Shown in pieces: positions 6,730 to 53,717 of a stretch of DNA of 64,000 bases. The DNA is taken from positions 1-64,000 of IMG/VR virus record IMGVR_UViG_3300045988_177228. One strand, 5' to 3'. Below the pieces are notes generated by a model. The model searched no databases. It was not told the DNA's origin and saw only the letters and a program-made list of their open reading frames with translations. Within the stretch, counting starts at the first letter, position 1. Every line of letters begins with the position of its first letter. Origin of the DNA: a virus. The translations under genes and the position numbers were made by a program.

Positions 6730-7887
6730 ATGACCAATCCGTTCAAACCAACCGCCGGACGTATCCCGCCGATACTCGTCGGACGAGAAGAAATCATCGA
6801 AGACTTCGACTATGCGCTGAAAGACGGTGTAGGAAGCCCCGGACGGCTGATGTTCCTCACCGGAGCCAGAGGCGTAGGAAAAACAGTCATGCTGGACACG
6901 TTAGGAACACACGCGCAGAAGCAAGGCTGGAAAGTCTATAACGAAAGCGCCGATAGAGGTTTCACCCAAAGACTGGTGGACGCACTTACCGGCAAGGACA
7001 CGACTCGCATATTCGCCTACGACATGCCTAGCGTCGGATTGAAAGGTGATGTAGGGAATCTGGAACTGAGTTTGGGGAGAATCGAACTCGAACACAATGA
7101 GGAACGTTCCTTGACGCTACGTCAAGCGGTCGGCAAACGTTTGGACAAGATAAATGAAAGCAAGCAGGGCATTCTCATCACGTTGGATGAGGTGCAGTCC
7201 GGTTCCATGGACGAAATCAGAGCACTGTCCACCGCAGTGCAGCATCTCATCCGGGAAGGACGGAACATCGCGTTCGTTTTCGCCGGACTGCCGTCCGCAG
7301 TGAACGACGTGCTGTCCGACAATGCCATCACTTTCCTGCAACGGGCGGAACGATACCATTTGGGGTCTGTCCCCACGGAAAAGGTATTGAAGGCGTTCGA
7401 GGAATCCTTCAGCGGCGAGAAGAAAGCCGGAATGGAAACGCTGATACGGTTGACCAACGCCACTCACGGTTATCCGTTCATGATTCAGCTGGTGGGCTAT
7501 TGGGCTTGGCGGATGTCCGAAACCAACGGTCATGTGAATCAAGTGACCGAGGAGGACGCGGTCAAGGGTATCGAAAAAGCCCAAGCCAAACTAGGGGATA
7601 TGGTTCACGCCCCAGCATTGCATGGCTTGCCATCCCATGCGGTGAACTATCTACTTGCCATGTCGGTGGATGATACGGTGTCGAATACAGGTGAAATCGC
7701 CCGTCGGTTGAACCGTTCGCCACAGTTCGCCAACGTGTATAGAACCAAGCTGATTGAGAACGATTTGATTGAGCCGGTCGGTTACGGTGAGGTCGCTTTC
7801 AAAATGCCGTATTTGCGGGATTACTTGCGTGAGCATGGGGCTTATTTGCAGATGCGGGAGAATATCAGCGAACGCTCGGAGAACTAG
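6730..7887 (+). CDS. AAA+ P-loop ATPase with C-terminal winged-helix (ATPase_2/DUF234-like)
   Basis: Walker A LTGARGVGKT, Walker B ILITLDEVQ, C-terminal wHTH-like region. AT-rich promoter tataattattataaaatcaaggaaacagacATG. Confidence 0.8.
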   Translation: MTNPFKPTAGRIPPILVGREEIIEDFDYALKDGVGSPGRLMFLTGARGVGKTVMLDTLGTHAQKQGWKVYNESADRGFTQRLVDALTGKDTTRIFAYDMPSVGLKGDVGNLELSLGRIELEHNEERSLTLRQAVGKRLDKINESKQGILITLDEVQSGSMDEIRALSTAVQHLIREGRNIAFVFAGLPSAVNDVLSDNAITFLQRAERYHLGSVPTEKVLKAFEESFSGEKKAGMETLIRLTNATHGYPFMIQLVGYWAWRMSETNGHVNQVTEEDAVKGIEKAQAKLGDMVHAPALHGLPSHAVNYLLAMSVDDTVSNTGEIARRLNRSPQFANVYRTKLIENDLIEPVGYGEVAFKMPYLRDYLREHGAYLQMRENISERSEN

Positions 7888-9610: not shown

Positions 9611-9854
9611 GACAGTTTCCTTTCACTCAAACGGCATACTCTGACCAATGCGCTGATAACCTCTAAAGCCCCACATGGGCGAAGTCCCGAGGAAGGAAAT
9701 GCAAGTAAACCCAGTGTAACACCAAGCCGGGAAGAAAAACTAGCCGACAAGCATGCCGATGTGAAATACGATGCAATCCAAGCCGCACGAAATCTCATCC
9801 AACGCTTCCAGCAGATTACGCCCCTCCACCACACAATCTGGAAAGTCAGGAATA

Positions 9855-11009
9855 TCACGGGTGAAAAGCCAGCTTCCGCATTTCACAATGCCTCCGATAC
9901 CACGCTTTCTCCCGAGCGCACAGTCCACGACGGTGAGTTAGACCCGACAGTGTGCTCTCATGGCTCGTCCAAGAATCCTGAACTGTCCGCAATCCCACAT
10001 GCACGCCATCATATGAGCGGATAAGGTTACGCGCATGCCGTCGGCTTGCACGCAACGCCTTATGGTGCATGCGGATAAGAATACTGCCGTCATCCTGTAC
10101 ACTGTATACGCGTTTCAGGAATGTGAGTTGACCGGTATGACAGTCCACTATGCGGGTCTTATGCTTGTTCAACCGCAATCCCAATTGATTGACACGCCAC
10201 TCATAACCGGCCAGCACACGTTCAGCCTGTTCACGATTCTTGCAGAAACAGTAGGCATCGTCCATGTACCGTCCGTAGAATCCTTGCGACATGCACCAGT
10301 GGTCAACCTTGTTCAAATACCAGATAGCCATGGTTTGGCTCGTCTGATTACCTAACCCTAAGTGAGGTTCGTCCAATACGAAGATTCTCAATACGGTTAG
10401 AATCCGTTCCACATCCTGCTTCTCCCGTCCGGTGCGGGCGATGCTCCGGTACAGGGTGGAAATCATATCGAACGCGCGTTGGGAGCTGATACTGCCGAAA
10501 TAGTTGGAACAGTCGAATATGACAGCATACGGATGCTCCCATTTACCCAAAGCCCGCTTATAGTGTAGTTCAAACCGTTTTCGGGCGAACGATGTTCCAC
10601 GTTTCGGAAGGCTCGCCGCATTATCATATATCAGTTGGCTTTCCACGATGGGGACGAGACTGTTGTCGCATAAGGCGCGTTGCACCACCCGGTCTCGGAA
10701 GGATACCGCGCTGATGTGGCGGAGTTTGCCTCGTTCGGAAATGTCGAATCGGATTGGCGCTCTCTTCTTGTATGTGCCGTCCTCTAATTCTTGTGCGAGT
10801 TTCCAACAGTTGACGGCACGCCTATTGTCGAAGTTCAACGCTGTGTTTTTCCACGTGACGCCGCGTTTGCATTTTCTTGCGGCTTGGTAGAGCGCGTCGA
10901 ATCCGAATGTTTGTTGGAAGTCGATGTAACGGTGGAGCTTCCTGTACTTATCATCCGAGCGTTGTTGCAGTCTGCGTTGGCGTCTTCTACGTCTTTGACT
11001 CGCATTCAC
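9855..11009 (-). CDS. diversity-generating retroelement reverse transcriptase
   Basis: RT motifs including YMDD. DGR-specific LGLGNQTSQ in place of QGxxxSP. Likely GTG start at 11009 with gaaggaag RBS (longest ORF reaches 11084). Immediately 3' of TR. Confidence 0.85.
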   Translation of the reverse strand: MNASQRRRRRQRRLQQRSDDKYRKLHRYIDFQQTFGFDALYQAARKCKRGVTWKNTALNFDNRRAVNCWKLAQELEDGTYKKRAPIRFDISERGKLRHISAVSFRDRVVQRALCDNSLVPIVESQLIYDNAASLPKRGTSFARKRFELHYKRALGKWEHPYAVIFDCSNYFGSISSQRAFDMISTLYRSIARTGREKQDVERILTVLRIFVLDEPHLGLGNQTSQTMAIWYLNKVDHWCMSQGFYGRYMDDAYCFCKNREQAERVLAGYEWRVNQLGLRLNKHKTRIVDCHTGQLTFLKRVYSVQDDGSILIRMHHKALRASRRHARNLIRSYDGVHVGLRTVQDSWTSHESTLSGLTHRRGLCAREKAWYRRHCEMRKLAFHP

Positions 11010-11278
11010 GATTTTAATGCTTCCTTCACTAGGGAAAGAGAAAAGAATGGTTGAGGGCAGGTCGTCGGCAACAACCCAAGACATGCAATGATGTTGGACG
11101 CCCAGCTTAAGGGGCGAGTATCCGTCGTTTCCGACAGTCTTAATATCTCCCTCAACCTATTTCACACGCAACCCATTTTTCGAGGGGCCGCGCATTCGAC
11201 CATATCCCCTTCCCCTTCGGGAGGCTTTCACCCATTGGGCTACTGGCCTATCTGATGTTAGTTTTTGGTAAGAGGAAT

Positions 11279-11430
11279 CGGGGACAACGGAGTAGCGATT
11301 GTTAGCATTGTTGTTGTAGCTGGGGTCACCGTTCGAGTTCACTTGGAGGAAATTGCCGCTGTTGTTCGGGTTGGGCGAACGCTCCCACCAATTGTTGTTG
11401 TTGGCACCGGAGGGTGCTGAACCGGAAACG
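11279..11430 (-). repeat. DGR template repeat (TR)
   Basis: 152 bp, identical to 12069-12220 except 14 positions, all T on the plus strand (A on the coding minus strand). Coding strand rich in AAC/AAT codons. Confidence 0.85.
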
Positions 11431-11465
11431 GAAACACCATTTTGGATATGGCCGGTTTTGTTTAG

Positions 11466-11987
11466 TTATATTTGGGGTTGAACCCAAGTGTCCATTCTAG
11501 TGGTGGTCTTTGACTCGACGGTTTTGGCTTTCTTCAACTGGTCTCGCTCGTATCGGACTGCCCCCGTGAACACCCCCATGGCTTTGTAGAGTGTGCCCGC
11601 ATAGTTGACAAATTTCTTCTCCTTGATTACGGGATTGTAGGTGGGGTCGCCTTCCTGACTGTTCTGGTAGGCTTTCATGTCGCGTTCTCGTGGTGGATAG
11701 TCTATCCAGTCGTCTACGAGGCCGGAGAGTGCGTTCAGCATTCCTTGGGCCTTGCATAAGAGTTGCAGTTTCATCTTATGCTCTTCGAGGGTGCTCGCGT
11801 AGATGGTGTCGGCGCTGTAGGCGGCTGTGTACATGTCGTAGGCGATGTGCATGACGTGTATGGTTTCGATGTTGTCTCGGCTTTTGGGCCATTTCCGGAA
11901 GAGGTTTCTGGTGGCGTAGAGTACGATTCTCGCTTGGTTCGCATATTCGCTTTTTGCTTTTGTCCGCTTGCTGGCGGGTACTGTCAT
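11466..11987 (-). CDS. putative Avd-like accessory variability determinant (173 aa, basic, helical)
   Basis: Position between target VR and TR as in canonical target-avd-TR-RT cassettes. Lys-rich helical protein. No direct motif proof. Confidence 0.45.
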   Translation of the reverse strand: MTVPASKRTKAKSEYANQARIVLYATRNLFRKWPKSRDNIETIHVMHIAYDMYTAAYSADTIYASTLEEHKMKLQLLCKAQGMLNALSGLVDDWIDYPPRERDMKAYQNSQEGDPTYNPVIKEKKFVNYAGTLYKAMGVFTGAVRYERDQLKKAKTVESKTTTRMDTWVQPQI

Positions 11988-12053
11988 AGGGGCTTCTTTC
12001 GTGTGATGTTTTAGCGGGGGTGGGGATGAACCCCACCCCCTAAAGATGGGGGA

Positions 12054-13019
12054 TTAGAAGGAGAAAGCGGGGACAACGGAGTAGCGATAGTTAGCATAGT
12101 AGCCGTAGCTGGGGTCACCGTTCGAGTACACTTGGAGGAAACTGCCGCTGTTGTCCGGGTCGGGCGAACGCTCCCACCAACGGTTGCTGCCGGCACCGGA
12201 GGGTGCTGAACCGGAAACGGTTTCGTAGATTCCAGACAGAATATTATTGTTTGAATAGTTGTGCATCACCTTGCCTTGGAAATACTCGTATTGGCTTCCC
12301 TCCTGACTTAACGCTTGGAATCCATTAGAGCTTTTCCACCCGTCGTATATGGTTGGTACGAGTTCCCTGTAGGATACGAGCCATACCTTGTCTGCTGTGG
12401 CGGATGCGGCGGAGCCGGAAGTGTTTCCGTAGTCCATGTTGTTGGTTTGTTTCAATACGGTGGTCACGTTGTTTTGGAAGTCGGTGGGGAATTGGTTCCA
12501 GATTTCCCCATTGTTCATCCATTGACGGAGATTACTGTCGCGCCATCCGCCCTTGTTGGTGTAGCCGTTCGTGCAGGTGGTCGTGTTGTCGGTTGGCATG
12601 ACGCCGTTTATGCAGTACGCTTTCGGTAACGCGTTCCATGCCATGAACGTCAAGCCAGCCTTTTTGCCGCTACCATCAGCCTTGTCGTCGTGGAGGATGC
12701 CGATGAGCCGGAATGGAAGATTGGAACCGTCCGACAGTGTGAGCGAGCCTTGCGTGCCCTTAGTCAGATTATCCTCCATTTCCGCATAGTAAGCGCTTCC
12801 CTTGCCCTTGTCGCTCAAATCGTCGGCAATCTGCTTCAATCCTGCGGCGTTGTAGCCCGCATAGCAGACCTTGTCCACGCCGGTCGAACATTTGGCCGGT
12901 TCCGAAGCGATGGCGCTACCGGTGATGAGTCCGCCGCAGACCGCCGCCACGATGGCGAGGGTGGCGAGGATTCGTTGTCCCAAGTGGCGGTTCACACGGT
13001 TACTGGCGTGCATGCCCAT
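12054..13019 (-). CDS. DGR variable target protein, secreted/surface (signal peptide, C-terminal VR)
   Basis: ATG 13019 with aaaggaac RBS (GTG at 13034 overlaps adhesin stop). Hydrophobic N-terminal signal LATLAIVAAVCGG. C-terminal 50 aa encoded by VR ...QVYSNGDPSYGYYANYRYSVVPAFSF. Confidence 0.8.
   Translation of the reverse strand: MGMHASNRVNRHLGQRILATLAIVAAVCGGLITGSAIASEPAKCSTGVDKVCYAGYNAAGLKQIADDLSDKGKGSAYYAEMEDNLTKGTQGSLTLSDGSNLPFRLIGILHDDKADGSGKKAGLTFMAWNALPKAYCINGVMPTDNTTTCTNGYTNKGGWRDSNLRQWMNNGEIWNQFPTDFQNNVTTVLKQTNNMDYGNTSGSAASATADKVWLVSYRELVPTIYDGWKSSNGFQALSQEGSQYEYFQGKVMHNYSNNNILSGIYETVSGSAPSGAGSNRWWERSPDPDNSGSFLQVYSNGDPSYGYYANYRYSVVPAFSF
12069..12220 (-). other. DGR variable repeat (VR) at 3' end of target gene
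   Basis: Aligned to TR it shows 14 substitutions, T to A, C or G on the plus strand, all at TR adenines of the coding strand. Flanks diverge at both ends (IMH-like 3' boundary at 12051-12068). Confidence 0.85.
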
Positions 13020-13030
13020 TTTTGTTCCTT

Positions 13031-16000
13031 TCACTTACGGTCTTCCTTTCTCAACAGGATGATTGCGGTGACGAGTCCCAGAATGCTGACGAGTATGAGG
13101 ATTGGCAACAGTAAGCCCATGCCGGTGTGGGGCATGCTCATCATCCATGTTTCTGGTAGGACGCCCGCGTCCACATTCTCCTTGTCCGGCTTATCCTGTG
13201 TGAGGATGATGGTGAACGTGGATTCACCGTACTTGTCGTCGCTCGTGTTCGCGTCGGAGTCGGTGGAACTCGCGTCATTCGGAATGTCCATGTCGTTCGC
13301 ATCCGGCTTGGTGAACTCTTGGTGGGTGACGCGGCTGAATTGGATGGTGTACTGGTCGCCGTCCGCGTCCAAGTGTTCGAACTTGTACTTGCCGTCCTTG
13401 TCGGTCTTGGTGGATGCCACCTGCTTGCCGTTCTTGTCGTACAGGATTACGGTCTGGTTGGCGAACCGGTTCGACTCGTTGTCGCTTCGAATACCGTCCT
13501 TGTCCGTGTCCTCCCAATACAGGCCGCTGATGGTGCCGAGTTTCTTCGCGCTGGTGGTTGGTGTGATGATGGTGCCGACTTGGTCGCAGGAGTCTTCGTC
13601 GCTGGTGCTGAACCAGTGTTGGTGTCCTTCCTCCGTATAGTCGGTGTCGGTGCGGCATGTCGGATTGCCGGTCACGTCATTCGTGTTCGTATCCAGTTTG
13701 GATGCGTTCGGAGGGTCCGGCTTGGTTTTGCCGCTTGCATGTGGCGTGCCTGAGTATGGCGTGTGTTCGGAGGTGAACCATGCTTGGTTGAGAATGGTCT
13801 TCGTATTCTTCTTGACCCACTCGTCTTTCTCAGTTGGAGACCACTTGGTAGTATCCGCAGTTTCACGGTCAACGGTGCCAGTGAAATGGTAGATGACATA
13901 GCCGCCCGACTCAATCGCATACGGCAGATTGTACGTGCGGGTCGTCAACCCCTTCTCCGTGGACTCGCTCAACGGTTCGACCGGTACGGCGGTCGGGTCG
14001 GACGATACGACCATTCCCTTCAAACCGGTGGAACGTGCGCCACCCGTCTTGCCGTCACCATACGGGTCGAAGCCCGCAATCATGACCTGCTTGCCGACAA
14101 TGAGCACGTCACGGTCGCCGCCCGCAACGTCGGATGCGGTAATGCCCGTATCGATTGGCGTGGAAACAATATCCGCGTTGCCGCTCGTACTGCCGTTGGT
14201 CCAATACCTGCCTGTACCGGTCTTACCGTTCGCTAATTGGCCGTCACCATTCCAGCCAGCCGCCCACAAGTGTTGGTTCTTGTCGATGGCGTAGAAAGTG
14301 TTGTATCCGCCACCGATACGGGTGATGTACCTCAGATTAGACACATTGGACTGGCCGATACCGCTATCACCTCCGCCGACGAGCACTATCACTGTACCCG
14401 CGTCAGTCAACCCGTAGGCGTTGCCGAATGAGGCGACAACTTGCGTGAAACCAATAGAGAAAAACTCGTCGCCGTCCACCACACAACCGCCGTAGGACGT
14501 CAACGCGACCCACCTGTACGTGCTGGCGCTGACCTGCGTGAACGTCTTACCCGACTGGATTTGCGTCCACGTTGAATACGAGGTGGAACTGACTTTTCCG
14601 ACCACCCACAAGGTGCCGTCACTTGCTATCGCCACAGTGAACTGGTTGCCGCACGCCACGTCAACAAACGTCTTATCTTCTGCGACTAGAGTCCACTGGT
14701 CACGATTATCCGTATCACCCGTACCCAATTGGCCTTTACCGTTCCAACCAGTCGTGTACAAGTGGCCGTCCGTGCTGATGGCGGCGGAATGCTTGCCACC
14801 GGCGGCGACTTTCAGCCAACTACCGTTGACGATGGTCGGCTTGTTCACGTTCGTTGGGGTAGCGGTATTCGTCGTGTCAGGCTTGAAACCTAATTGACCA
14901 TACTGGTTGTTACCCCACGCATACAACAAGCCCTCGTTCGTCAACACAAACTTATGGTCGCCACTCGTCGCAACCTGCTTCGCACCACCAGACTCGATAG
15001 AAACCGTACCGGCGGTAGCGGAAACATCATGCACGTCGGCGCTCATACGGTCAGAAACGACACTGGAAGTATCAAAACGACTAGTGCCAGAATTCTGTAC
15101 TTTGACATCCCAGTTGATGACGCATTTCGTATCGGTGCAACTGGTGCCGGTGACGGTTTTGTCCACGGTGGCTTTCGGGTCTGGTTTCGCATACCCGTAG
15201 TCCACGTTCTTCTGGTCTGCGCCGATGCCTAGGTGGATGTCGTCGGACGTGTCTTTCGCGTTGGACTTGATTTTGTTCGACCAGCTTCGCGTGTTCGTCA
15301 CGTTTTCGAGCTTGCCATAGTAGGTTTTGACCTGCGTCTGCACGCCATCACCCGTACTGGTGCCAGTGTTGCGTTTCACCGAAGTACGGTAGGTGCCGGA
15401 GTGGAGCAGGTTGAACTCGTAGTAGCCGTCCTTGTCGGTCTTCACCGTTTTGACGGCCTGCCAGCCGCCGCTTGAATCCTGCTTGCCGAGGGTGACTTCC
15501 ACTCCTTCGATACGTTCTTCACTGTCACCGATGAGCGTGTTCTCATCCTTATCCCACCAGACGGTGCCGCTGATGCTACCGGCCACTACCTTCGCCACGT
15601 CAGGCCACGGCTGGTTGCCCGCCGGTTTGTCGGAAGCGTCGGAATAATAGTTACGGCCAAGCCACAGCGTGTACTTGTCGTCTTTCACATTGTCGGATGG
15701 GGTGAGCGTGATGGCGCCGTTCACCGCCGAATAGGACAGTTTATCGTCGGACGCGACGACTGTGCTGGTCAGTCGGATGGCGATGATGTTCTTCTTCTCG
15801 ATGGAGGACAATTCATCCCATGTCTTCCACTCGTAGTCAGCCGGATTATCCGACTTCTTTCCGGTGGTGGTTGAATAGTAGACGGTCGTACTGGTCGAAT
15901 TGTCCATATTGACCGTGACGGGCTGGGTCAGTTCGTAGGAGCCATGATAGTTGCTGTATCCACGCTCATATTCGACCAGCTTGTCCTGCACGTACTTCTC

Positions 16001-18421
16001 ATCACCATTCGCAGGAAGCAGTAGCATGCTATCCATGGTGCCGGTATGTCCGCCGCCCTTGCCGTACACGTTGAACTCCCAAGTAAGCGGGTCACTGATT
16101 TCAGCCTTCGTGGTCTTCACACGCATGATGCCACTGTTGGTTTCCGCATTGGAGACAGGGAATGGGACGCTGGGCGTATTGCTTTTGATGGTTTGGGCTT
16201 GCAATGCGCCGTTCTCGTCAACGTCCACGCTCATATTCGCACTGGCGGTCACAGTCCCGGTGGCGAGATTGGATACGATGCCACTGAAATGCAGGTCAGG
16301 CAAAGTGGCCGACCCCATACGGTCTACTTCCGGCGTGACTTTGCCGGAACGTGGCGTGAACACGAGATTATTCCCGTCCACTTTCATCTGCCAGAACGAA
16401 TCATCACAGGTCGGATTGTACAAGCCTTTCGGTTTCGGCACCGTGATGGTCGGCGTCATGCTCGTATTGGACAGGAGAATGGTGCGCAATTGTTCCGTGA
16501 CCGTATAATCCACTCGCATGCCGGGAGTCAAATCGACTGCGCTTCCGGACGGGTGATTGGAACTGTTGTTCGCATACACTTGATTGCCTTCACCATCGTA
16601 GGCTTTTAGACTGATGTCGATACTGGTGGTCGGGTCTACCGGCTTGGCAATCCACACCCAATTGGTGACGCTCGCCTTATCGTCTTCGGTAAGCCATGCG
16701 GTCAGCGTATCCAAAGCTTCCACATTGCCTTTGGACACGTCGGCTATGGCGAGCGTGTTGAACGTGACCTGAACGTTCGGCGCACCCTTTCCCAAAGTCA
16801 AAGTGTCGGGGTTGAACGTCACCCGAATCTTCTTGACGTTCGGAGCGTCTGTGTCGGATGGTTCCCCGTCATGCCAATTGTCTTTGCTATCATCCCATTG
16901 AACTTTGTAGTCGGAAACCGGAGCGCCGTTCTGGGTGACTTCCAAGCTTCCATCCCACCGCATGCGCGTATTATCCCACTCGTCCTGCATGGTCGGCGTA
17001 GTGTTTTTAAGCTTGTCCGCCGTAACGTTCGCCGCATACATTTCCAAAATGGTTTTGACTTGCGTTCCACGGGACACGGTGTCGCCGGAACCGTCGGAAT
17101 AGTAATGGTAGATGTCAGCTTTGCCTTCGGCGGCGTCGAACGTCAGATTCTCCTTGTCGAACATGGTCTTGGACGCAGTGTTAGGACGTTGCAGTCCTTT
17201 GCCGAACAGTGGAATCTTGCCAGCTGGAGTCGGCTTGAGCCGTTGGATGATGGCTCGTGACCAGTCATTGTTCGCATACGGGTAGCCTACGCGGGCACCC
17301 GTATCCTTGTCGTAGGTGCTCTTGTCCCGTCCAATGTTCCAGCCGGGTTCGCCGCCCTTGCCCATGTTCAACAGTGCGTCGCCGTTATCGTCTTTGACAC
17401 TGAACACGGTTTCGTCGGGAACAAGGTGGACATCGTAATATTTGACGTCTCCTTCTTTCATGTTTTTGAGCGCGTCGGTTCCGGCGGGAATCCTGTAGCT
17501 GATTGTCGCCGCCGCACCGTTTTTGCCACTGGATACGGTCAAATACTGTTCTTTATCACTGTTACGGGTAATCCGCTGACCGCCTACAGTCCACACGGTG
17601 CCCTGCGGGAAGTCGGAAATATCCACTTTGGTCGTCCAATCGATGCTGGTGGACGCGCCCTTCGTGGACGAATAACCCGGATAGGTCAACGTGTCGGCAC
17701 GAATAGTGAAATCGCCGGTCGCGTCGGTGTTCTGACTCCAATAAGTACGATGCTCATACGAGTATTGGCCTTTCACCGGATTGCCGCCATTGTCAATGAC
17801 CAAGTCAGCCGCCGGAGCGGATACTACAGTCAACTCATCCGTACGATACGTGGTTGACGTTCCACCTTCGCGGGCGACGACGATTTTCGGAATCTGACCC
17901 GGCTTGACCAAGCCTCCCGTGTCTTTTGCTTTCAGATAGAAGGTTTGGGTCATGGTTTCCACGCCACCGGCTGGAACCGTGTAGGAGCAGGAGCCGTCAC
18001 TGTTTTTCTTTGCGGTGACGAGTTGTCCCGGCTGGCAGAAGCCACCACCGTCAGCAGTCTGCAAATACGGTGCGTCGTCCAAGTCGAACTTCACGTTGAT
18101 GGTGCGTTTGCCCGCCGCGTTGAAGTTCAACGTCAATGAATATTCGACCGTATCACCGGATGCGACCACGCCATCGGTAGGGGAATCATCGCCCGTGGCG
18201 AACCCGTTCTTCGAATTCACGAACGTTTGAGAACTCGTGCCATGCCCCGTACCGTCGGCTTTCTTAACGATTTTCGCAGTAGCATACGCGGGTTTCAACT
18301 CGTCCGCATGCGCTGTCGGAGAAGCCACCGGATTGGTCATGCATGTCAGGCCGGATGCCAGTGTGGCGATTGCGGCCAATAATGCTACCGGATGTGCCAC
18401 ATGCTTTTTGAGAATACTCAT
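13031..18421 (-). CDS. large cell-wall-anchored adhesin (1796 aa) with RCC1-like propeller repeats and Cna-B/SdrD-type domains
   Basis: Signal peptide. RCC1 repeats (WGNNQYGQLG, GWNGKGQLG). SdrD-B/CnaB-like DKDGYYEF and DKDGKYKF. C-terminal sorting signal MPHTG plus hydrophobic stretch plus RKEDRK. Confidence 0.85.
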   Translation of the reverse strand: MSILKKHVAHPVALLAAIATLASGLTCMTNPVASPTAHADELKPAYATAKIVKKADGTGHGTSSQTFVNSKNGFATGDDSPTDGVVASGDTVEYSLTLNFNAAGKRTINVKFDLDDAPYLQTADGGGFCQPGQLVTAKKNSDGSCSYTVPAGGVETMTQTFYLKAKDTGGLVKPGQIPKIVVAREGGTSTTYRTDELTVVSAPAADLVIDNGGNPVKGQYSYEHRTYWSQNTDATGDFTIRADTLTYPGYSSTKGASTSIDWTTKVDISDFPQGTVWTVGGQRITRNSDKEQYLTVSSGKNGAAATISYRIPAGTDALKNMKEGDVKYYDVHLVPDETVFSVKDDNGDALLNMGKGGEPGWNIGRDKSTYDKDTGARVGYPYANNDWSRAIIQRLKPTPAGKIPLFGKGLQRPNTASKTMFDKENLTFDAAEGKADIYHYYSDGSGDTVSRGTQVKTILEMYAANVTADKLKNTTPTMQDEWDNTRMRWDGSLEVTQNGAPVSDYKVQWDDSKDNWHDGEPSDTDAPNVKKIRVTFNPDTLTLGKGAPNVQVTFNTLAIADVSKGNVEALDTLTAWLTEDDKASVTNWVWIAKPVDPTTSIDISLKAYDGEGNQVYANNSSNHPSGSAVDLTPGMRVDYTVTEQLRTILLSNTSMTPTITVPKPKGLYNPTCDDSFWQMKVDGNNLVFTPRSGKVTPEVDRMGSATLPDLHFSGIVSNLATGTVTASANMSVDVDENGALQAQTIKSNTPSVPFPVSNAETNSGIMRVKTTKAEISDPLTWEFNVYGKGGGHTGTMDSMLLLPANGDEKYVQDKLVEYERGYSNYHGSYELTQPVTVNMDNSTSTTVYYSTTTGKKSDNPADYEWKTWDELSSIEKKNIIAIRLTSTVVASDDKLSYSAVNGAITLTPSDNVKDDKYTLWLGRNYYSDASDKPAGNQPWPDVAKVVAGSISGTVWWDKDENTLIGDSEERIEGVEVTLGKQDSSGGWQAVKTVKTDKDGYYEFNLLHSGTYRTSVKRNTGTSTGDGVQTQVKTYYGKLENVTNTRSWSNKIKSNAKDTSDDIHLGIGADQKNVDYGYAKPDPKATVDKTVTGTSCTDTKCVINWDVKVQNSGTSRFDTSSVVSDRMSADVHDVSATAGTVSIESGGAKQVATSGDHKFVLTNEGLLYAWGNNQYGQLGFKPDTTNTATPTNVNKPTIVNGSWLKVAAGGKHSAAISTDGHLYTTGWNGKGQLGTGDTDNRDQWTLVAEDKTFVDVACGNQFTVAIASDGTLWVVGKVSSTSYSTWTQIQSGKTFTQVSASTYRWVALTSYGGCVVDGDEFFSIGFTQVVASFGNAYGLTDAGTVIVLVGGGDSGIGQSNVSNLRYITRIGGGYNTFYAIDKNQHLWAAGWNGDGQLANGKTGTGRYWTNGSTSGNADIVSTPIDTGITASDVAGGDRDVLIVGKQVMIAGFDPYGDGKTGGARSTGLKGMVVSSDPTAVPVEPLSESTEKGLTTRTYNLPYAIESGGYVIYHFTGTVDRETADTTKWSPTEKDEWVKKNTKTILNQAWFTSEHTPYSGTPHASGKTKPDPPNASKLDTNTNDVTGNPTCRTDTDYTEEGHQHWFSTSDEDSCDQVGTIITPTTSAKKLGTISGLYWEDTDKDGIRSDNESNRFANQTVILYDKNGKQVASTKTDKDGKYKFEHLDADGDQYTIQFSRVTHQEFTKPDANDMDIPNDASSTDSDANTSDDKYGESTFTIILTQDKPDKENVDAGVLPETWMMSMPHTGMGLLLPILILVSILGLVTAIILLRKEDRK

Positions 18422-19326
18422 TAGTGTTCCTTCTTTGCGTGGTTTTTTCTACGGATGATGAGAATGGTGATGATGATTACCGCAAGCCAGAAGCCGCCGA
18501 CGTACAGTATGAGCCATTGGTTCGTGTGGTCTTTCGGCGCGTTTTCGGGTTTGGGTGCGGGGTGTGGCATGCTGGCGCGCGTGCCGGTCACTAGGAGTCG
18601 CTTGTTGTTGATGCCGTATGGCGTGCAGGTTAGGAGTGTGGCGAGGTCTTTTCCTGTGACGATTTTCAGTTTAGAAAAGTCGGACGGGTCTACCACATTG
18701 ATGCTCGTGACCTTGTAGGCGAGCGTATGTCCGGCGGTTATCAGATAGAAGACGTCACCTTTTTTGGCTTCACTGCCGAAGCCGCGTAGCTTGTCGAACA
18801 TGAGCTGGTCGGCCAAACCCGTATGCGCGGATATGACAGTATGCGTGTTCTTGCCGCCGACGGGGAGACTGGAACCGTATAAGTGTCCGGCTCCAGCGGC
18901 CAACACGTTTTGCGACGTGCCATGCCGGATGGGCAGGTTGATGCCCAAGCGTGGATATTTGATGGTAGCCATGACCCCATCCTTGGGGGTGGATAGTTGC
19001 TTCCGATACGTGTTGTCCGTTTCGGACTTGTTGACGCCCGTCCAAGGGTCTTCCGCCTCACCAAGAATGGGCTGACCCTCCTCGTATAGGCGTTGATTGT
19101 AGGCTTTCGCGTCCGCATACTCTTGGGCGATTCGTTTCACGTCAGTGTTTTCCACGGCTTGCGCGTGGGAGTCAGTCAACCGGTTGGATTGGCTGCTATT
19201 CGAAATCATGAGGATGAATGGGATGGTTCCGGACAGGGCGGATAGGATTAGGCAGAGGAGTCCCGCTATGGCTCGATTTCCCAAGCCTTTCGGTTTCGCC
19301 GTATGTTTTCCCAAAACCCCTCCCAT
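18421..19326 (-). CDS. class C (pilus-specific) sortase
   Basis: TLLTCTPYG catalytic Cys motif, conserved His region, N-terminal signal/TM and C-terminal TM anchor. Confidence 0.85.
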   Translation of the reverse strand: MGGVLGKHTAKPKGLGNRAIAGLLCLILSALSGTIPFILMISNSSQSNRLTDSHAQAVENTDVKRIAQEYADAKAYNQRLYEEGQPILGEAEDPWTGVNKSETDNTYRKQLSTPKDGVMATIKYPRLGINLPIRHGTSQNVLAAGAGHLYGSSLPVGGKNTHTVISAHTGLADQLMFDKLRGFGSEAKKGDVFYLITAGHTLAYKVTSINVVDPSDFSKLKIVTGKDLATLLTCTPYGINNKRLLVTGTRASMPHPAPKPENAPKDHTNQWLILYVGGFWLAVIIITILIIRRKNHAKKEH

Positions 19327-19443
19327 GCGGTTATAAAGAATCTAAAAGGTGGCGTGTCGATATTTGGGTTCCCGACACGCCAAGCGGAACATTTCATGCT
19401 TTTCCAGCCGTCAAACGGTCAGAAAAGTTTTCTCATACGACTC

Positions 19444-21135
19444 TCACGCCTTGCGACGAAGCAGCAGGGCGGAAGCGCCAGCCAACAGGACGGTCATCAC
19501 GCCGAAGATGGACAGCCAGACCGCACCGGTCTTCGGCATGTCGGCAATGTTACGGGCGTTGATGACGGTCACACCCAGATGGTCGGCGTTCTCGGAAGCC
19601 AGATTGTTGGCGTCCTTATCGAACTGACTGAGCGTGTAGGAGCCGTTCGATTGGTTCACCTTGATGGTCAGGGTGAACTGCGGCAGGATGGAGCCATTGA
19701 ACGGACTCTTTGTCTCCTTGACCGTGTACTTGCCGTCGAGACCAGTCAGAGTGAGCACGCCATTGCTAGTAGCGACGCTGGTGACGGTGTCGGTGGTGCC
19801 GGTGCTCTCGGTCAGGTCGGCCTTACGGTACGTATTGTCGTTCACCTTGATGAACTTGACCGGAGTGGCGGTCTGGTTGCCCTCGTACACCTTGAACTCA
19901 GCTCCGGCGAGCGGCGCGTTGTTCGTGTCGTGCTTGGTGAGGGTGAACTTGCCGACGTACACCTTGTCGGTCTGGCCCGGAGTGGTCTTATGGTCGGTGA
20001 CAGTGTTCGGGTTGTGGGAGTATTCGACGTTGTTGGTGTTGGTGTCGGCGGTGCCGGAGACGGCGTTCTTGTTCACATACATGTCGTAAGTGACTTTGAC
20101 GGCGGCATCGACCGGGAACTTGGCTTTCATCGCCACGATGTCGGATGCGGTGGTGGAGTCACCGGTGGTCGGAGCGAAGATGATGTGGAACTTGCCATCC
20201 TCAGTAGTGACCTTGTAATCGGTGTCGCGGATGAGGGTCTTACCGTCCACGGTCACGACCATGTTGTCCTTGGCCGCGTCATAGGTCAGGCCCTTGGAAT
20301 ACGTATCGTTGATGGCGTAATAGTACTTGTCGTAGCCAGTCCAGTTCGGCACTTTGCTGGTCATTTCGAAGCTGACCTTCTTGCCGATAGCGGTTTCGGC
20401 GGTCGCGCCACTGTTTTCGACGGTGCCGTTTTCGGCGGCGGTAATCTTCTTCGTGACGGTGGTGCTGTGTACCTTATAGTTCACGGTGCCCAGTGTGTAG
20501 GTCTTGGCGCCGTTCTTCAACATAGTCTTGCCGTCGATGCCAGTGCCGTTGAACATGACGATGGATGCCTCGCCCTTGACGGTGGTGTCCACTACCGCAT
20601 ATACGCCCGGACGGACGGATGCGGTCATGTGCTGGGCGTCGGCGCCCTTGGCGAACGCGGTGCCCTTGTCGCCGGTGACGGCGGTCTCGTTCTTCAACTG
20701 GTCGAGGAAGTCACGAAGCTTGCCAGCCCACGGACTGTTCTCGGAATCAAGCAAGTTCTGTACGACCCACACCATCGGATTGGACGCATTATAGTCGTAT
20801 CCGGCAGTCTGGTCTTTCTTGGACTTGGTGTCGATATTGGCTTTAGTCAATGCGTCAGCGATAGCAGAAGCCTTGCCCGCGTCAATCAAGTCAAAGCCAG
20901 TAATATTAGTACCATCAGTCTGCGCATACGAATAGTAGGCGAGCGGCACAGCCTTCAACGTGCGATTGCTAATATCACCATTAGCAGTGACGGTCAACGT
21001 CTGACGAGCAGCCGCACCAAGCTTGGATGCGTCAACACGAGCATCAGCCGCCATGGCGGAGCCGACTCCAGCCAAACCCATGGCACCGGCCACAAGCGTG
21101 GCGACCGTTGCCTTCAACAGGTTTTTGGTTTTCAC
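19444..21135 (-). CDS. sortase-dependent major pilin (SpaA/FimA-like)
   Basis: Signal peptide. E-box YTVKETKSP. C-terminal MPKTG plus hydrophobic plus RRKA sorting signal. GTG start with ggaaaggaaaac RBS. Confidence 0.8.
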   Translation of the reverse strand: MKTKNLLKATVATLVAGAMGLAGVGSAMAADARVDASKLGAAARQTLTVTANGDISNRTLKAVPLAYYSYAQTDGTNITGFDLIDAGKASAIADALTKANIDTKSKKDQTAGYDYNASNPMVWVVQNLLDSENSPWAGKLRDFLDQLKNETAVTGDKGTAFAKGADAQHMTASVRPGVYAVVDTTVKGEASIVMFNGTGIDGKTMLKNGAKTYTLGTVNYKVHSTTVTKKITAAENGTVENSGATAETAIGKKVSFEMTSKVPNWTGYDKYYYAINDTYSKGLTYDAAKDNMVVTVDGKTLIRDTDYKVTTEDGKFHIIFAPTTGDSTTASDIVAMKAKFPVDAAVKVTYDMYVNKNAVSGTADTNTNNVEYSHNPNTVTDHKTTPGQTDKVYVGKFTLTKHDTNNAPLAGAEFKVYEGNQTATPVKFIKVNDNTYRKADLTESTGTTDTVTSVATSNGVLTLTGLDGKYTVKETKSPFNGSILPQFTLTIKVNQSNGSYTLSQFDKDANNLASENADHLGVTVINARNIADMPKTGAVWLSIFGVMTVLLAGASALLLRRKA

Positions 21136-21257
21136 CTTTGTTTTCCTTTCCTTACTAGACCCGGCGCGCGTTCATTCATCGAACGGGGTCAATATCGGAT
21201 TACATTCCTAATATACCGCACGCACCCCATTAAAAACCTTCGAAAAGGACTCTTTCA

Positions 21258-21299
21258 GCCTTTGAAAAATAAAGGAGGGCATGGCTTCCCATACCCTCC
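21258..21299 (-). terminator. intrinsic terminator downstream of the flotillin/DnaB operon
   Basis: On the minus strand GGAGGGTATGG-gaag-CCATGCCCTCC followed by TTTATTTTTC. Confidence 0.5.
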
Positions 21300-21317
21300 A
21301 ACATGCCCCTGAGCAGG

Positions 21318-32043: not shown

Positions 32044-32149
32044 ATCCAGCGAACACTCCGGTCGTACAGGCTGTTAACAGTCGGAACGAGGTGTTCTGTA
32101 TTTTCAATTCACGAGTGTAGCGCCCGACGGCATCCCTAAACGGGGAAAA

Positions 32150-32930
32150 CGGGGAAAAACAATTCCCCGCGCCACCCGCGCCGGTAGTTCCAACAGAAAA
32201 GCGGAACCAAAAAGAGTCCCCAACAAATATGAAAAAAGGAACAGCACCCGACCATTATCAGAAAAACCATGAAAACCATCCAGTCCACGCCGGTAGGTCA
32301 ACATGAATAGCAGACTCAAAAAAAGAGAAAAACCAAAAATCAAAAAGACTAAAAGAAAGGAAGCACTACCCACCAAAAATCAGAAAAAGAAACCAAACAC
32401 CATCACACCAAAAAAAGAAGAACCAAGAAAATCAGAAAGAAAAGAAAAACCAAAAGGAAGAAAAGGAGAATATAAGAGAAGCAATCTTAATCAAATAGAA
32501 GCAACAGAAGAACAGGACAATAAAAGAAGAAACACCTACCCCTAAATCGGGAATACAACGTATAGAAGCAACAGAAGCAACGCAACCATCCACCAAAAGA
32601 ACAACATATCAACCCATATGACATACAGGACAGAAGAACAACAGCACCCAACACCCCAAGAAACAAGAAAAGCCAAGCAACAGCACCACAAGGCAACAGG
32701 CCAAGCAACAGCACCAGCACAAACAACAACCAACAGCCACTACAACAACAAAAAAACAACAAAAAGGTCAATAGTCTCACTAACAAGGTCAACGGCAATC
32801 AGAACAAGGTAACATCAATACAGGAACAGCCAATGCAACGAAAAAAGCAACAGCAAAACCAACAAAAAACTAAATATCAAAAAACTATAAATGCCAGAAC
32901 TCGGACAAAACCGTAAACGTTCCGATGAGA
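32150..32930. repeat. ~780-bp low-complexity A/C-rich, G-depleted region (plus strand) between divergent genes
   Basis: Runs of aaaaag/aacaac/caacag. Extreme strand asymmetry unlike the rest of the window. Track ORFs inside are K-rich or Q/T-rich artefacts. Confidence 0.6.
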
Positions 32931-43959: not shown

Positions 43960-44196
43960 TTTTTGTTCGGCGGTAAAAACAAAAGAAGGCCGTATCCGTT
44001 TCATCGCGGACGCGGCTTTCTGTTTTTCTGTTCCGCCTGTAAACTTGTACGCCGTTCAACTGTTTTACTGGAATGTTTCTCCGAACGGTTTTCTGGTTCG
44101 GCGTGCCGACTTTTCGCCGTTGTTATCATCGAAACAAAAAGACATACCCCCACCATGATTCCGTCCACACCGGAAGCAGAAAAAGGAAACCAGAAC

Positions 44197-44859
44197 ATGA
44201 GAGTCAAAAACCATACGGTCATCATCACCGTCGCAATCATCAAAGGCGGTTCAGGAAAAACAACCACATCAATGGCATTGGCCGAACTATTGCACAAACG
44301 CGGGGAACAAGTCACAGTCTTGGACTCCGACAACACGGGCGGCGCGACCATGTGGGAAATGTACGTCGAACAGGAAAACCGCAGACGCAGACAGGACAAT
44401 CCGGACGCGGAACCATACACGCTCGGCTTCCCCGTCGTGCAAACCAACGAAGCCGTATTGAACAATCCGGAACTCATCCGCGAAAAATATTCAGGCTGGG
44501 TCATCATCGACACCCCACCGTCCGACGCGGGAGTGGTGCAGGCGGCGATAAACGCGGGCGACGTGGTGATAATCCCATGCCAGCCATCCGTATCCGATTT
44601 GACCCACGCGGGACGCACATACGCGGCGGCACGCAACGGCATCGTCCTGTTGACACGCGTGAAGCCGAGAACGAAACTCGCCCGGAACAGCATCAGCGAA
44701 CTGGATGAGGAAGGCATCGCACGGTTCGAAACCGTCATCACGGAACGTGAAGCCGTCAAGAACATGTACGGCACGACGGAAATCGACAACAAGGAGTATT
44801 CCAGCGTCGTGCAGGAACTCATCGACTATCTGTCTGAAATCAATCTGGTGGAAGAATAA
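44197..44859 (+). CDS. parA: ParA-family plasmid partition ATPase
   Basis: Deviant Walker A KGGSGKTT, VLDSD, IIDTPP. Real start inside track ORF 43963..44859. Confidence 0.85.
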   Translation: MRVKNHTVIITVAIIKGGSGKTTTSMALAELLHKRGEQVTVLDSDNTGGATMWEMYVEQENRRRRQDNPDAEPYTLGFPVVQTNEAVLNNPELIREKYSGWVIIDTPPSDAGVVQAAINAGDVVIIPCQPSVSDLTHAGRTYAAARNGIVLLTRVKPRTKLARNSISELDEEGIARFETVITEREAVKNMYGTTEIDNKEYSSVVQELIDYLSEINLVEE

Positions 44860-45453: not shown

Positions 45454-46323
45454 TCAGGATACGAACGGGTTCATTGGCTCGTTATCGTCTGCCACGCCCG
45501 CGTCCGTGTCGGCATCATCGTTAGCCGACTGGATGGAAGGGAGACTGGGGCGGACTATGACGCCGGTTTCCGTGATTTCGACTTTCAGCTCCGGCCATGC
45601 GAGCTGAATCTTCTCCAACGCTCTCTTGAACTTGCGTTTGAATTCACGTATCGGATACCCGTCATACTTGAACTGCATCAACAGAGCTTCCCATGTTACG
45701 CCGGTTTCACGTCGGGCACCGTTCGCGCGGAACGCGAGCCATTGGTAGATATCCAAAGCGAGGGCGTCACTGCGAAGCTGACGGACGATGTACGGGTTGA
45801 GTGGCACGCAGTTCTCGGTCAGCAGCGCCCACATCTGTGGGGAGAATTCTATGAACGACTTCTTGTTTTCGTCGGTCACGTAGTTGAGCGCCACGGTGTT
45901 GGCGACGAAGAACGAGTGGGCTATGAATCCGTCTGCTGACCAGTTTTTGAGGATGATGGAAGTGGTGGCTAGATTCTTAACCATCTGCATCACATTATCC
46001 TTGCTGGACCCCGAATAATGGATTCCGGCATTCTTGCAAAACGAGTTATACGTGTCGTCCAAGTAGACGGTGTGACGCTCCGCGTCCACGCAGTCGCTTC
46101 CATTCTTGATGAGCGAGCGGATGTGGATGAGGAACATTCTGGGGGCCGCACCGTAAGCCCATTCGCCATTAGATGCCGAAACTGTGATTGACGAGCGTCC
46201 GTTGGTTTTCGTCACGCTGGGTGTAGTTGGTTTTGTCTGGGGGAGGAAGCTCAGCTTCGACATCACGGACGGCGTATAGCGGTATGAGTTGTTGTTGTCT
46301 GCGGGGACGATATCATGGTTCAA
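45454..46323 (-). CDS. plasmid replication initiator protein (iteron-binding Rep, winged-helix type)
   Basis: ORF directly downstream of iterons and AT-rich stretch. DIYQWLAFRANG...VTWEALLMQF resembles Rep_3-type initiators. Confidence 0.65.
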   Translation of the reverse strand: MNHDIVPADNNNSYRYTPSVMSKLSFLPQTKPTTPSVTKTNGRSSITVSASNGEWAYGAAPRMFLIHIRSLIKNGSDCVDAERHTVYLDDTYNSFCKNAGIHYSGSSKDNVMQMVKNLATTSIILKNWSADGFIAHSFFVANTVALNYVTDENKKSFIEFSPQMWALLTENCVPLNPYIVRQLRSDALALDIYQWLAFRANGARRETGVTWEALLMQFKYDGYPIREFKRKFKRALEKIQLAWPELKVEITETGVIVRPSLPSIQSANDDADTDAGVADDNEPMNPFVS

Positions 46324-46476
46324 GTGACCATAGCTCCTTTATGGTTGCCAACGCCCCGGCTGTTGACCCAGCGCGGGGTTTTCTTTTTCTTCGATTCTAA
46401 CCGGTGCTTCTGACCTTCCCGCTGTTGTATTCAACCTTTCGGGCGTGCGTGAGAAAGTGACACACAGAACATGAAA

Positions 46477-46565
46477 AAGTTGGCACTTTCGACACGGAAA
46501 GTTGGCACTTTCGACACGGAAAGTTGGCACTTTCGACACGGAAAGTTGGCACTTTCGACACGCTT
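46477..46565. repeat. iterons: 4 tandem copies of a 22-bp direct repeat (aaagttggcactttcgacacgg)
   Basis: Perfect head-to-tail repeats at 46477, 46499, 46521 and 46543, plus partial ctttcgac. Confidence 0.85.
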
Positions 46566-53273: not shown

Positions 53274-53717
53274 TTGGACGAACAATCCTCCACCCAACGT
53301 TTCCGTGTTCTCATGGCCGGTATCAGCGAAGGTGAGACCAGAATCCTCTACAACATCGAAAAAGGAAGGTTGACCGCCGACATTCTCAAAAGCAACATCG
53401 GCAGACGACTGCTGGATGCCGGACTCATCCGACGTAACGGGCAATCGGCCCCGTCCCTCACCAAGGATGGCATACGTCTCGTATCCACGCTCGCCCAAGG
53501 CGAGGCAGACCGTCCAATCCGACTATACGAGCGCAACGGCGAAACGCTGCTCCGCCAAGCCGGACAGGGAACGGCCAACGCATACAAGACCGGTTTCGAA
53601 AACGCCGCCATCGAACTGCTGAACGACAAGCTGGTTCGCCTCGACATCGCAACAGGTGCTCTGACGCTGCTTCCTGCGGGACGGGAACTATTGGAACGAC
53701 TGGAGCAGACGTCTTGA
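53274..53717 (+). CDS. hypothetical protein (147 aa)
   Basis: gaaaggagcagcaTTG start. Confidence 0.5.
   Translation: MDEQSSTQRFRVLMAGISEGETRILYNIEKGRLTADILKSNIGRRLLDAGLIRRNGQSAPSLTKDGIRLVSTLAQGEADRPIRLYERNGETLLRQAGQGTANAYKTGFENAAIELLNDKLVRLDIATGALTLLPAGRELLERLEQTS

Follow-up and report, generated by a model that had tools for sequence, protein, structure and literature searches.

Probable joining of a diversity-generating retroelement to a sortase-dependent pilus/adhesin operon of a Bifidobacterium megaplasmid related to pMP7017

The prototype of the diversity-generating retroelements (DGRs) is that of Bordetella phage BPP-1, with the order mtd-avd-TR-brt. In Bacteroides, DGRs diversify the tip adhesins of type V pili, whose genes are located directly 3′ of the pilus subunit genes and are carried on conjugative elements (bioRxiv 10.1101/2024.11.15.621889). 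DGR targets with the DUF6273 domain have been found in Faecalibacterium phages and as tentaclins, which are virion-associated (PMC10743442; bioRxiv 10.1101/2024.10.15.618418), and the same domain forms the N-terminal part of the T. ramosa IgA protease, where it is not diversified (PDB 9qa6; PMC12402451). None of these DUF6273 proteins is tied to sortase pili, and our literature search found no paper describing a DGR within a sortase-pilus operon. Among plasmids, pMP7017 of B. breve has been shown by experiment to be conjugative and replicates from iterons, and its family includes a RepB initiator with 20-mer iterons (PMC8313286, PMC10832533).

Here we describe a locus within a 64-kb stretch of DNA (hereafter the window, to which all coordinates refer), in which a functional DGR has, with good probability, become joined to a sortase-dependent pilus/adhesin operon at its 3′ end, the carrier being a Bifidobacterium megaplasmid that resembles pMP7017. 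With the type V pilus DGRs of Bacteroides it shares a gut commensal host, a target that comes last in the pilus cluster behind the structural subunits, a putatively conjugative mobile carrier, a variable region (VR) on a C-type-lectin-type binding face, and diversification in human metagenomes. The two differ in that the Bacteroides pili are type V pili formed by strand exchange of lipoproteins, whereas polymerisation here is covalent, sortase-dependent and Gram-positive. The Bacteroides target is itself a lipoprotein tip subunit of the FimA superfamily, which the present target is not; the variable protein here is separate and secreted, has neither pilin features nor a sorting signal, and is encoded behind a giant LPXTG adhesin. 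The carrier is an ICE in Bacteroides and a megaplasmid here, and the accessory protein here is not recognisable as Avd. An earlier note on this DNA had considered the organisation new, which has to be narrowed: DGR-diversified pilus tips are published for Bacteroides (10.1101/2024.11.15.621889), but the Gram-positive sortase-pilus version appears to be undescribed.

All genes of the locus lie on the minus strand, in the order major pilin, class C sortase, 1796-aa RCC1/SdrD_B adhesin and DUF6273 target gene, followed 3′ of the target by the accessory gene, the template repeat (TR) and then the reverse transcriptase (RT) gene. Directly past the stop of the preceding flotillin gene lies a terminator-like hairpin (21274..21299, minus strand) of 11 pairs followed by TTTATTTTT, and since this hairpin terminates the flotillin gene, the pilus genes begin a new unit. 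The non-coding leader 5′ of the pilin gene (21136..21273, minus strand) is the presumed promoter region; no consensus sigma-70 site was called in it and a sigma-70 promoter scan yielded no more sites than shuffled sequence does, hence no promoter is claimed. The major pilin (563 aa, 19444..21135, minus strand) matches the isopeptide-forming fimbrial domain of NCBIfam and lies above the cutoff for GramPos_pilinBB and SpaA (Pfam) and for TIGR04226, and under the cutoff of 95 for the SpaH/EbpB model (80 bits). It possesses a signal peptide, CnaB-type domains, the E-box YTVKETKSP and a C-terminal sorting signal MPKTG followed by a transmembrane segment and an RRK tail, while the canonical YPK pilin motif is absent from it, VNYKV near residue 220 being a candidate variant picked by eye. 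The 117-nt spacer between pilin and sortase contains a stem-loop (19350..19382, minus strand) with an 11-bp stem and then CUUUU, which falls under the threshold of the terminator scan with a fold z-score of only -1.9; this hairpin with its short U-run may act as a partial transcription attenuator.

The sortase (301 aa, 18421..19326, minus strand) is assigned to the pilus-polymerising class C by NCBIfam NF033745 (226.5 bits, cutoff 160), and its stop is overlapped by the start of the adhesin gene at 18421. This LPXTG-type adhesin (1796 aa, 13031..18421, minus strand) is composed of a signal peptide, an unannotated N-terminal region of ~950 aa, a SpaA/CnaB domain, an RCC1 beta-propeller (~1140-1480) and an SdrD_B domain, and ends with the sorting signal MPHTG, a transmembrane segment and RKEDRK. 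The unusual MPxTG type of signal is common to pilin and adhesin, and with this match the adhesin is a candidate tip or ancillary subunit of the pilus.

The target gene (12054..13019, minus strand) encodes 321 aa from the ATG at 13019, which has AAGGAA five nt 5′ of it and is the start picked by gene callers on an identical contig (locus L002); the alternative is a GTG at 13034, which overlaps the adhesin stop TGA (13033-13031) as GTGA. The target thus starts either 11 nt behind the adhesin stop or with a 4-nt overlap. The earlier note had placed the target start on or against the adhesin stop, and the adhesin behind a class C sortase and an E-box pilin on one strand; both descriptions hold for the coordinates, domains and E-box given above. 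A terminator scan found no terminator-like site between adhesin and target, compared with one at the end of the upstream flotillin gene. With target and adhesin 11 nt apart or overlapping by 4 nt in the window and by 14 nt in other lineages, among them the second one described below, and with no terminator at their junction, the target would be co-transcribed with the pilus and adhesin genes. In a third lineage a hairpin with a T-run lies between adhesin and target, and together with the pilin-sortase hairpin here it suggests that expression may be segmented.

The target product, which has the DUF6273/C-type-lectin-like fold, is predicted to carry a cleavable Sec signal peptide (cut between AIA and SEP). 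It contains no sorting signal, CnaB domain or lipobox, and its C-terminus is the VR, ending in VVPAFSF before the stop; by the features tested it is neither a pilin nor a sortase substrate. A lipoprotein anchor was considered and discarded, as the cysteine in the signal peptide is not conserved and is replaced by glycine in relatives. The lack of sorting signal and lipobox counts against attachment to cell or pilus, and we infer, rather than observe, a location at the surface.

The VR (12054..12220, minus strand) spans the 3′-terminal 167 nt of the target gene, stop codon included, and is paired with a TR of 167 nt (11265..11431, minus strand) at 89% identity. Sixteen of the 19 mismatches fall at TR adenines and the remaining three at the extreme 3′ end, the IMH region, where the ends of TR and VR normally differ. 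Counted by hand on the sequence, the TR holds 15 in-frame AAY codons. A GC-rich hairpin (12016..12040, minus strand; 10-bp stem, loop around TTCAT, fold z -3.8) begins 14 nt past the target stop and is kept with stem substitutions in both Bifidobacterium lineages, DGR-less loci included; it resembles the VR-flanking target-recognition hairpin of BPP-1 and is a putative recognition element. The accessory gene (173 aa, 11466..11987, minus strand) occupies the avd position between target and TR. Its product matches no family, shows no similarity to Avd that could be detected, and is predicted as an all-helical bundle, a model that returns generic matches only. The RT (409 aa, 9855..11084, minus strand) matches RVT_1 (E 4.9e-13) and the PHROG reverse transcriptase family (E 3.5e-55) and has the motifs LGNQTSQ and YMDD; its assignment to the DGR type is made from motifs and context, not from a DGR-specific HMM. 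An Rfam scan of the window returned no RNA family.

The order target-accessory-TR-RT, a 3′-terminal VR in the target, the adenine-specific mutagenesis, the AAY-rich TR, the GC-rich hairpin directly 3′ of the VR and the C-type-lectin fold of the target are all as in BPP-1. Unlike that system, the present DGR is cellular or plasmid-borne, its target is Sec-secreted and encoded in an adhesion operon instead of being a tail-fibre protein, and its accessory protein is without detectable sequence similarity to Avd.

Natural variation at the VR is extensive. A single 90%-identity cluster holds 1229 distinct sequences, and 15 sampled members vary almost exclusively at those VR codons whose TR counterpart is AAY. 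Moreover, 38 loci carry 30 distinct VRs, and the DGR-bearing relatives (n = 7) each have their own set of TR/VR mismatches, almost entirely adenine-specific. This variety indicates that the DGR is active in nature. By analogy with BPP-1, the RT, aided by the helical accessory protein, would copy the TR RNA and misincorporate opposite adenines, and the cDNA would take the place of the target's 3′-terminal VR, guided by the 3′ end of the VR and the GC hairpin. In this way some 15 AAY codons for the ligand-binding face would be rewritten with the scaffold unchanged, the likely outcome being cells or plasmids that each have a different binding specificity in one adhesion apparatus. Host or dietary glycans and the surfaces of other microbes are candidate ligands.

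Comparison with related loci supports the link between target and adhesin. Gene order is the same on every contig with the same sortase, and the comparison proposed in the earlier note, for a DGR at the operon end among related elements, recovered the adjacency of adhesin and DUF6273 gene in three DGR lineages (RT 100, 66 and 40% identical), with pilin and sortase in two, as well as in DGR-less copies. The second lineage (RT 66% identical, GC 62%) has an intact pilin-sortase-adhesin-DUF6273-accessory-RT array, and the third (RT 40% identical) has RCC1 adhesin-DUF6273-RT. In B. moukalabense and strain MCC02031 the pilin-sortase-adhesin-DUF6273 module is chromosomal, beside plsC/gpsA/ddl, with DGR remnants in MCC02031; the DGR-less copies retain the four genes together with accessory or RT fragments and the GC hairpin, and in chromosomal copies the adjacency of adhesin and target outlasts the decay of the DGR to fragments. 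As the adjacency is kept across these relatives, the sequences argue that the target is a conserved terminal gene beside the adhesin and that the linkage is non-accidental. In two loci (L004 and L005) the flanking DNA is 100% identical to the window, whereas identity drops to only 71-83% across a block that takes in the C-terminal ~350 aa of the adhesin, the target and the accessory gene, a pattern indicating that these three are exchanged as one allelic block and hence co-inherited.

It has to be asked whether DGR and target could instead be an independent secreted-protein cassette, linked to the pilus only genetically through a shared insertion site or regulation, with the variable protein working on its own, perhaps as a free lectin or as a binder associated with the wall. 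We consider this rather unlikely, although the target has a signal peptide without a sorting motif, other DUF6273 targets are phage proteins unconnected with pili, in one chimpanzee-gut element, which lacks sortase and adhesin there, the DUF6273 gene comes after a pilin and two small ORFs, and one locus (L045) has lost pilin, sortase and adhesin yet still has the DGR with a truncated target. Against it stand the persistence of the adhesin-target adjacency at all three levels of RT identity, on plasmid and chromosome and after DGR decay, the overlapping or abutting of adhesin stop and target start, and the swapping of adhesin C-terminus, target and accessory gene as a single block. Most probably the variable protein cooperates with the adhesin or the pilus, and it may associate physically with one of them. 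A more specific proposal, which we put forward only tentatively, is that the DUF6273 lectin supplies specificity to a Gram-positive pilus or adhesin as an exchangeable subunit, which would dock non-covalently on the RCC1/SdrD_B adhesin at its C-terminal stalk and be inherited with it as one allelic cassette.

The replicon that carries the locus resembles pMP7017. About 17 kb of the window (35.2-52 kb) are collinear with 34.8-50 kb of pMP7017 at 47-58% amino-acid identity, including an AAA ATPase, a protein of ~1300 aa, ParA and a GmrSD-like gene. The ParA partition ATPase (43963..44859, plus strand) is 52% identical to that of pMP7017, and the RepA_C-domain replication protein (45454..46323, minus strand; RepA_C 40 bits) is 34% identical to its RepA. 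Around 150 bp 5′ of the RepA_C gene lie four perfect tandem 22-bp repeats (AAAGTTGGCACTTTCGACACGG, 46476..46562), which are iteron-like. No RepB homologue was found in the window, and a 426-aa ORF (46992-48272) considered as the Rep gene for these repeats matches a hypothetical protein of pMP7017, neither RepA nor RepB. The collinearity with conjugative pMP7017, the RepA_C gene, the repeats and ParA together indicate that the element is a gut Bifidobacterium megaplasmid with a plasmid-type replicon. The element, of ~205-228 kb, is also carried by an isolate (GCA_022133115.1). The iteron replicon with parA read from the letters in the earlier note is thus upheld, and its placing of hypermutation in the adhesion locus of a mobile replicon stands for the structure and the replicon here but is qualified by the chromosomal modules of B. 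moukalabense and MCC02031.

Megaplasmids of the pMP7017 family also have a pilin-adhesin-class C sortase locus (PMC8313286, PMC10832533), in the different order pilin, InlB-repeat protein, sortase and CAP-domain protein; the members in PLSDB are without this DGR and without any DUF6273 target, and in contrast to the family the window has no tRNA genes. A near-identity DNA search with 9800-21300 against PLSDB plasmids and INPHARED phages gave no match, and among plasmids the target protein matched only a Collinsella DUF6273 protein, which is unrelated and has neither pilus genes nor a DGR around it. A scan of GTDB species representatives returned one locus, on a Senegalimassilia-labelled MAG contig, hence the module is accessory and, in reference genomes, rare.

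Gram-positive aggregation substances mediate aggregation of donor and recipient, and the module could in principle serve the megaplasmid in this way, the DGR widening the range of recipient surfaces recognised during conjugation. The relationship of the carrier to conjugative pMP7017, itself with a differently built pilin-adhesin-sortase locus, and a DUF6273/pilin pair on an element with a TrwC relaxase would fit such a role, but the same module lies amid chromosomal housekeeping genes in B. moukalabense and MCC02031, and in the Bacteroides analogue deletion of the diversified tip adhesin left ICE transfer unchanged (10.1101/2024.11.15.621889), which makes this role improbable. A phage or phage-plasmid nature of the element, with the target a virion receptor-binding protein near pilus genes by chance, is hardly credible and we reject it: 18 related contigs of 44-217 kb are listed as viral in IMG/VR and DUF6273 is typical among phage DGR targets, but no capsid, portal, terminase or tail gene was found by PHROG and Pfam in 40 of the ORFs of at least 150 aa in the window, the backbone is collinear with a plasmid proven to conjugate and replicate from iterons, and the target has a Sec signal peptide and lies within a sortase operon.

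Bifidobacteria are key early-life and probiotic colonisers of the gut, and the sortase pili they bear are established colonisation factors. If our preferred reading of a functional DGR joined to the pilus/adhesin operon is true, a DGR that rewrites a lectin-fold protein in a pilus operon would provide these bacteria with an inbuilt means of changing their adhesion targets, and since many public gut-metagenome assemblies contain the megaplasmid, it is a trait that can be shared as well. Should the docking proposal be true as well, the result would be an adhesin of two components, with the DGR reprogramming its binding head, and the first retroelement-programmed sortase pilus, spread by megaplasmid between Bifidobacterium strains. 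The family also preserves both gain and decay of the DGR, in intact arrays, truncated accessory genes and RT fragments, and the numerous natural VR variants could serve ligand screening. The Bacteroides finding now has a counterpart in a Gram-positive phylum, with a pilus machinery unrelated to type V pili, which suggests that DGRs have been recruited convergently to adhesive organelles in the gut.

Every long ORF of 9855-21300 lies on the minus strand, and four of them form a sortase-pilus array. In transcription order these encode a 563-aa pilin (19444-21135) with matches to GramPos_pilinBB, SpaA and an isopeptide-forming fimbrial domain, as well as an E-box (YTVKETKSP) and an MPKTG sorting signal; a class C sortase of 301 aa (18421-19326), which scores 226 bits with NF033745 (cutoff 160); an adhesin of 1796 aa (13031-18421) that combines a SpaA/CnaB domain, an RCC1 propeller and an SdrD_B domain with an MPHTG sorting signal; and last the 321-aa DUF6273 protein that is the DGR target (12054-13019). 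The adhesin stop, TGA at 13033-13031, is overlapped by a possible target start, GTG at 13034, while the ATG at 13019, which is the start called on an identical public contig, is preceded at 5 nt by the Shine-Dalgarno sequence AAGGAA. Gene order, domain matches and the 13031-13034 junction thus agree with the placement of the target in the earlier note, as the gene right after the adhesin in such an array. A strong terminator-like hairpin (21299-21274) follows the upstream flotillin gene, and a search of the adhesin/target junction found no terminator-like site. The 117-nt spacer between pilin and sortase contains an 11-bp hairpin followed by CUUUU, which could serve as a read-through attenuator, and a single transcript from pilin to target is therefore no more than plausible.

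The variable region (VR) occupies the final 167 nt of the DUF6273 gene (12054-12220), and its template repeat (TR), 89% identical, lies at 11265-11431. The two differ at 19 positions: at sixteen the TR has A where the target gene has G, T or C, and the other three fall at the extreme 3′ end, where template and variable repeats of DGRs are expected to differ. By manual count on the sequence, the TR holds 15 in-frame AAY codons. Past the TR, on the same strand, a 409-aa reverse transcriptase (RT; 9855-11084) carries the motifs LGNQTSQ and YMDD, and a 10-bp GC hairpin (12016-12040, minus strand; z -3.8) stands 14 nt past the target stop, where phage BPP-1 has its target-recognition hairpin. The 173-aa accessory ORF between target and TR (11466-11987, minus strand) has just six homologous clusters among 5.8 billion proteins and no match to family models or PDB sequences, and it is predicted to fold as a helical bundle, with only generic bundles as structural matches; hence its equivalence to Avd is positional.

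To judge from natural variants, the DGR is active in nature. The closest 90%-identity cluster of the target comprises 1229 distinct sequences, of which 15 sampled members differ only at AAY-templated codons and a few allele-defining scaffold positions. Across 38 fetched loci 30 different VR peptides were found, and every DGR-bearing relative has its own set of TR/VR differences, almost entirely adenine-specific. One member of the target cluster, P0122, carries the unmutated template as its VR (NNNN...NPNNSNN...) followed by a TR-type 3′ end VVPDSSYQKTNIR, which would be either an assembly collapse of TR and VR or non-mutagenic homing past the usual boundary. The target itself begins with a typical Sec signal peptide (cleavage site AxA) and has two conserved cysteine pairs. 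A lipobox was considered and is unlikely, since the signal-peptide cysteine is glycine in relatives. The protein has no sorting signal and so could not be a sortase acyl donor; if it is part of the pilus, it would have to be docked non-covalently.

The earlier note had called for comparative genomics of related plasmids and had named a fortuitous arrangement as an alternative. That alternative is contradicted, as the adjacency of adhesin and target recurs with and without the DGR. In the assembly collection, contigs encoding an identical sortase protein came from 62 index blocks, and all of them have the same gene order. The array of a second lineage (RT 66% identical, GC 62%) comprises pilin, sortase, a 1826-aa RCC1 adhesin (MPMTG), DUF6273, accessory gene and RT; its adhesin and DUF6273 genes overlap by 14 nt, and its TR/VR pair has 23 adenine substitutions. 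A third (RT 40% identical, GC 55%) has a 1950-aa RCC1/SdrD_B adhesin with LPGTG, a DUF6273 target and an RT; its TR/VR substitutions number 15, all at adenines. On its contig L027, 68 nt separate adhesin and target (7303-7372), with a 12-bp hairpin followed by TTTAT; unlike in the window, this spacer may be a transcript boundary or an attenuator.

In B. moukalabense and Bifidobacteriaceae strain MCC02031 the four-gene module is chromosomal, beside plsC, gpsA and ddl, and neither copy has an intact DGR; what remains in MCC02031 is an accessory-gene fragment covering aa 1-39 and an RT fragment covering aa 139-209 (65% identical). In L010, a B. pseudocatenulatum contig that shares this megaplasmid-type backbone with the window, a deletion of ~4 kb, from inside the accessory gene to inside an AAA_16 ATPase gene (window ~11830 to ~7838), removed TR and RT and left the first 52 accessory codons, and some further contigs hold accessory-gene fragments only. 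The hairpin flanking the VR is kept in the DGR-less Bifidobacterium-type copies L009, L010, L012 and L017. Since the linkage persists across lineages, chromosomes and DGR-decayed copies, the DGR is an old partner of the adhesin-DUF6273 pair that has been lost repeatedly. The pilin-sortase-adhesin-DUF6273 module was also seen on L015 (CAVEXE010000023.1), a MAG contig labelled Senegalimassilia (Coriobacteriia), and a reduced form (pilin, two small ORFs, DUF6273) on L019/L020 from chimpanzee gut, on an element with a TrwC relaxase. No VR-flanking hairpin is evident in L015 or L019/L020. If the binning is correct, the range of the module may extend outside Bifidobacterium.

Diversification and recombination have a hotspot at this locus. 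Against two related contigs that are otherwise 100% identical to the window, L004 and L005, nucleotide identity drops to 71-83% between sharp bounds at ~14100 and ~11400. This block takes in the last ~350 adhesin residues, the entire target and the accessory gene and leaves out TR and RT, where identity is back to 96-99%. This pattern suggests cassette exchange in which the adhesin C-terminus and the target evidently travel together, and adhesin stalk, target and accessory protein have possibly co-evolved. Variation extends to the pilin alleles (68-100%), and genes have been lost from some contigs: pilin and sortase, or these two together with the adhesin. L042, without pilin and sortase, has the flotillin gene directly against adhesin residue ~887, and it has an RT but no accessory-gene match; in L045, where the adhesin is gone as well as pilin and sortase, flotillin adjoins target residue ~89.

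The replicon is of plasmid type, as the earlier note had held. From 35.2 to 52 kb the window matches pMP7017, a B. breve megaplasmid, in collinear order (34.8-50 kb there; 47-58% protein identity), sharing genes for an AAA ATPase, a ~1300-aa protein, ParA, a GmrSD-like protein and others. A RepA_C-domain ORF (45454-46323, minus strand) is 34% identical to pMP7017 RepA and has four perfect 22-bp repeats ~150 bp upstream, parallel to the repeats in front of repA in pMP7017, which is conjugative by experiment and iteron-regulated through RepB (PMC8313286, PMC10832533). No RepB homologue was found within the 64-kb window; related contigs reach 205-228 kb. IMG/VR lists 18 related contigs (L029-L046, 44-217 kb) as viral, and PHROG and Pfam scans of 40 window ORFs of at least 150 aa found no phage structural gene; the label reflects either misclassification or phage-like genes in the remainder of the element. 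The annotations of pMP7017 include a 'phage tail tip lysozyme', DUF2815 and a PD-(D/E)XK nuclease. Elsewhere in the window, an A-rich non-coding stretch with several short A-rich tandem repeats (32100-32900; AT skew 0.375 over 32-34 kb) immediately precedes a CpaE/ParA-like ATPase gene (32941-34155); its possible roles are those of origin, oriT or regulatory region. A TnpB/IS605 OrfB gene adjoins a GmrSD_C (DUF1524) nuclease gene at 48491-50804, with neighbours as in pMP7017, and an N6/N4 DNA methylase gene lies at 53714-54670. A 523-aa ORF (62218-63789) has PHROG hits (E 2.6e-14) to 'replication initiation protein' families, no Pfam domain and no match in the examined parts of pMP7017, and may be a second replication gene.

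The pilus locus of pMP7017 itself (L016 7083-19319) differs in order from that of the window: its genes encode a SpaA pilin, an InlB-B-repeat protein of 2080 aa, a class C sortase (40% identity with that of the window) and a CAP-domain protein of 980 aa, whose gene takes the place of the DGR target. That megaplasmid has neither a DGR nor a DUF6273 gene, and two papers on it mention neither a DGR nor a plasmid-borne pilus (PMC8313286, PMC10832533). A full-text literature search returned no paper tying a DGR to a sortase, LPXTG proteins or Bifidobacterium megaplasmids; one paper with both sortases and DGRs concerns Bacillota megaplasmids with the DGRs in prophages. To this extent the Gram-positive, sortase-pilus version appears undescribed, but DGR-diversified pilus tip adhesins have already been described in Bacteroides, and theirs is the closest known system. 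There, horizontally transferred systems are active in mothers and infants, and the tip adhesin is not needed for ICE transfer (bioRxiv 10.1101/2024.11.15.621889). The window locus works like that system but stands outside it, in that its pilus machinery is unrelated and its variable protein is a separate secreted subunit, whereas that of Bacteroides is a pilin.

The earlier interpretation is therefore largely right, including the plasmid setting, though this setting is not exclusive, given the chromosomal copies of B. moukalabense and MCC02031. Co-transcription, surface location and ligand of the target are putative. Reframed accordingly, the conserved unit is adhesin, DUF6273 target and DGR inside a sortase-pilus operon, carried on megaplasmids and chromosomes alike, with the DGR part frequently lost.
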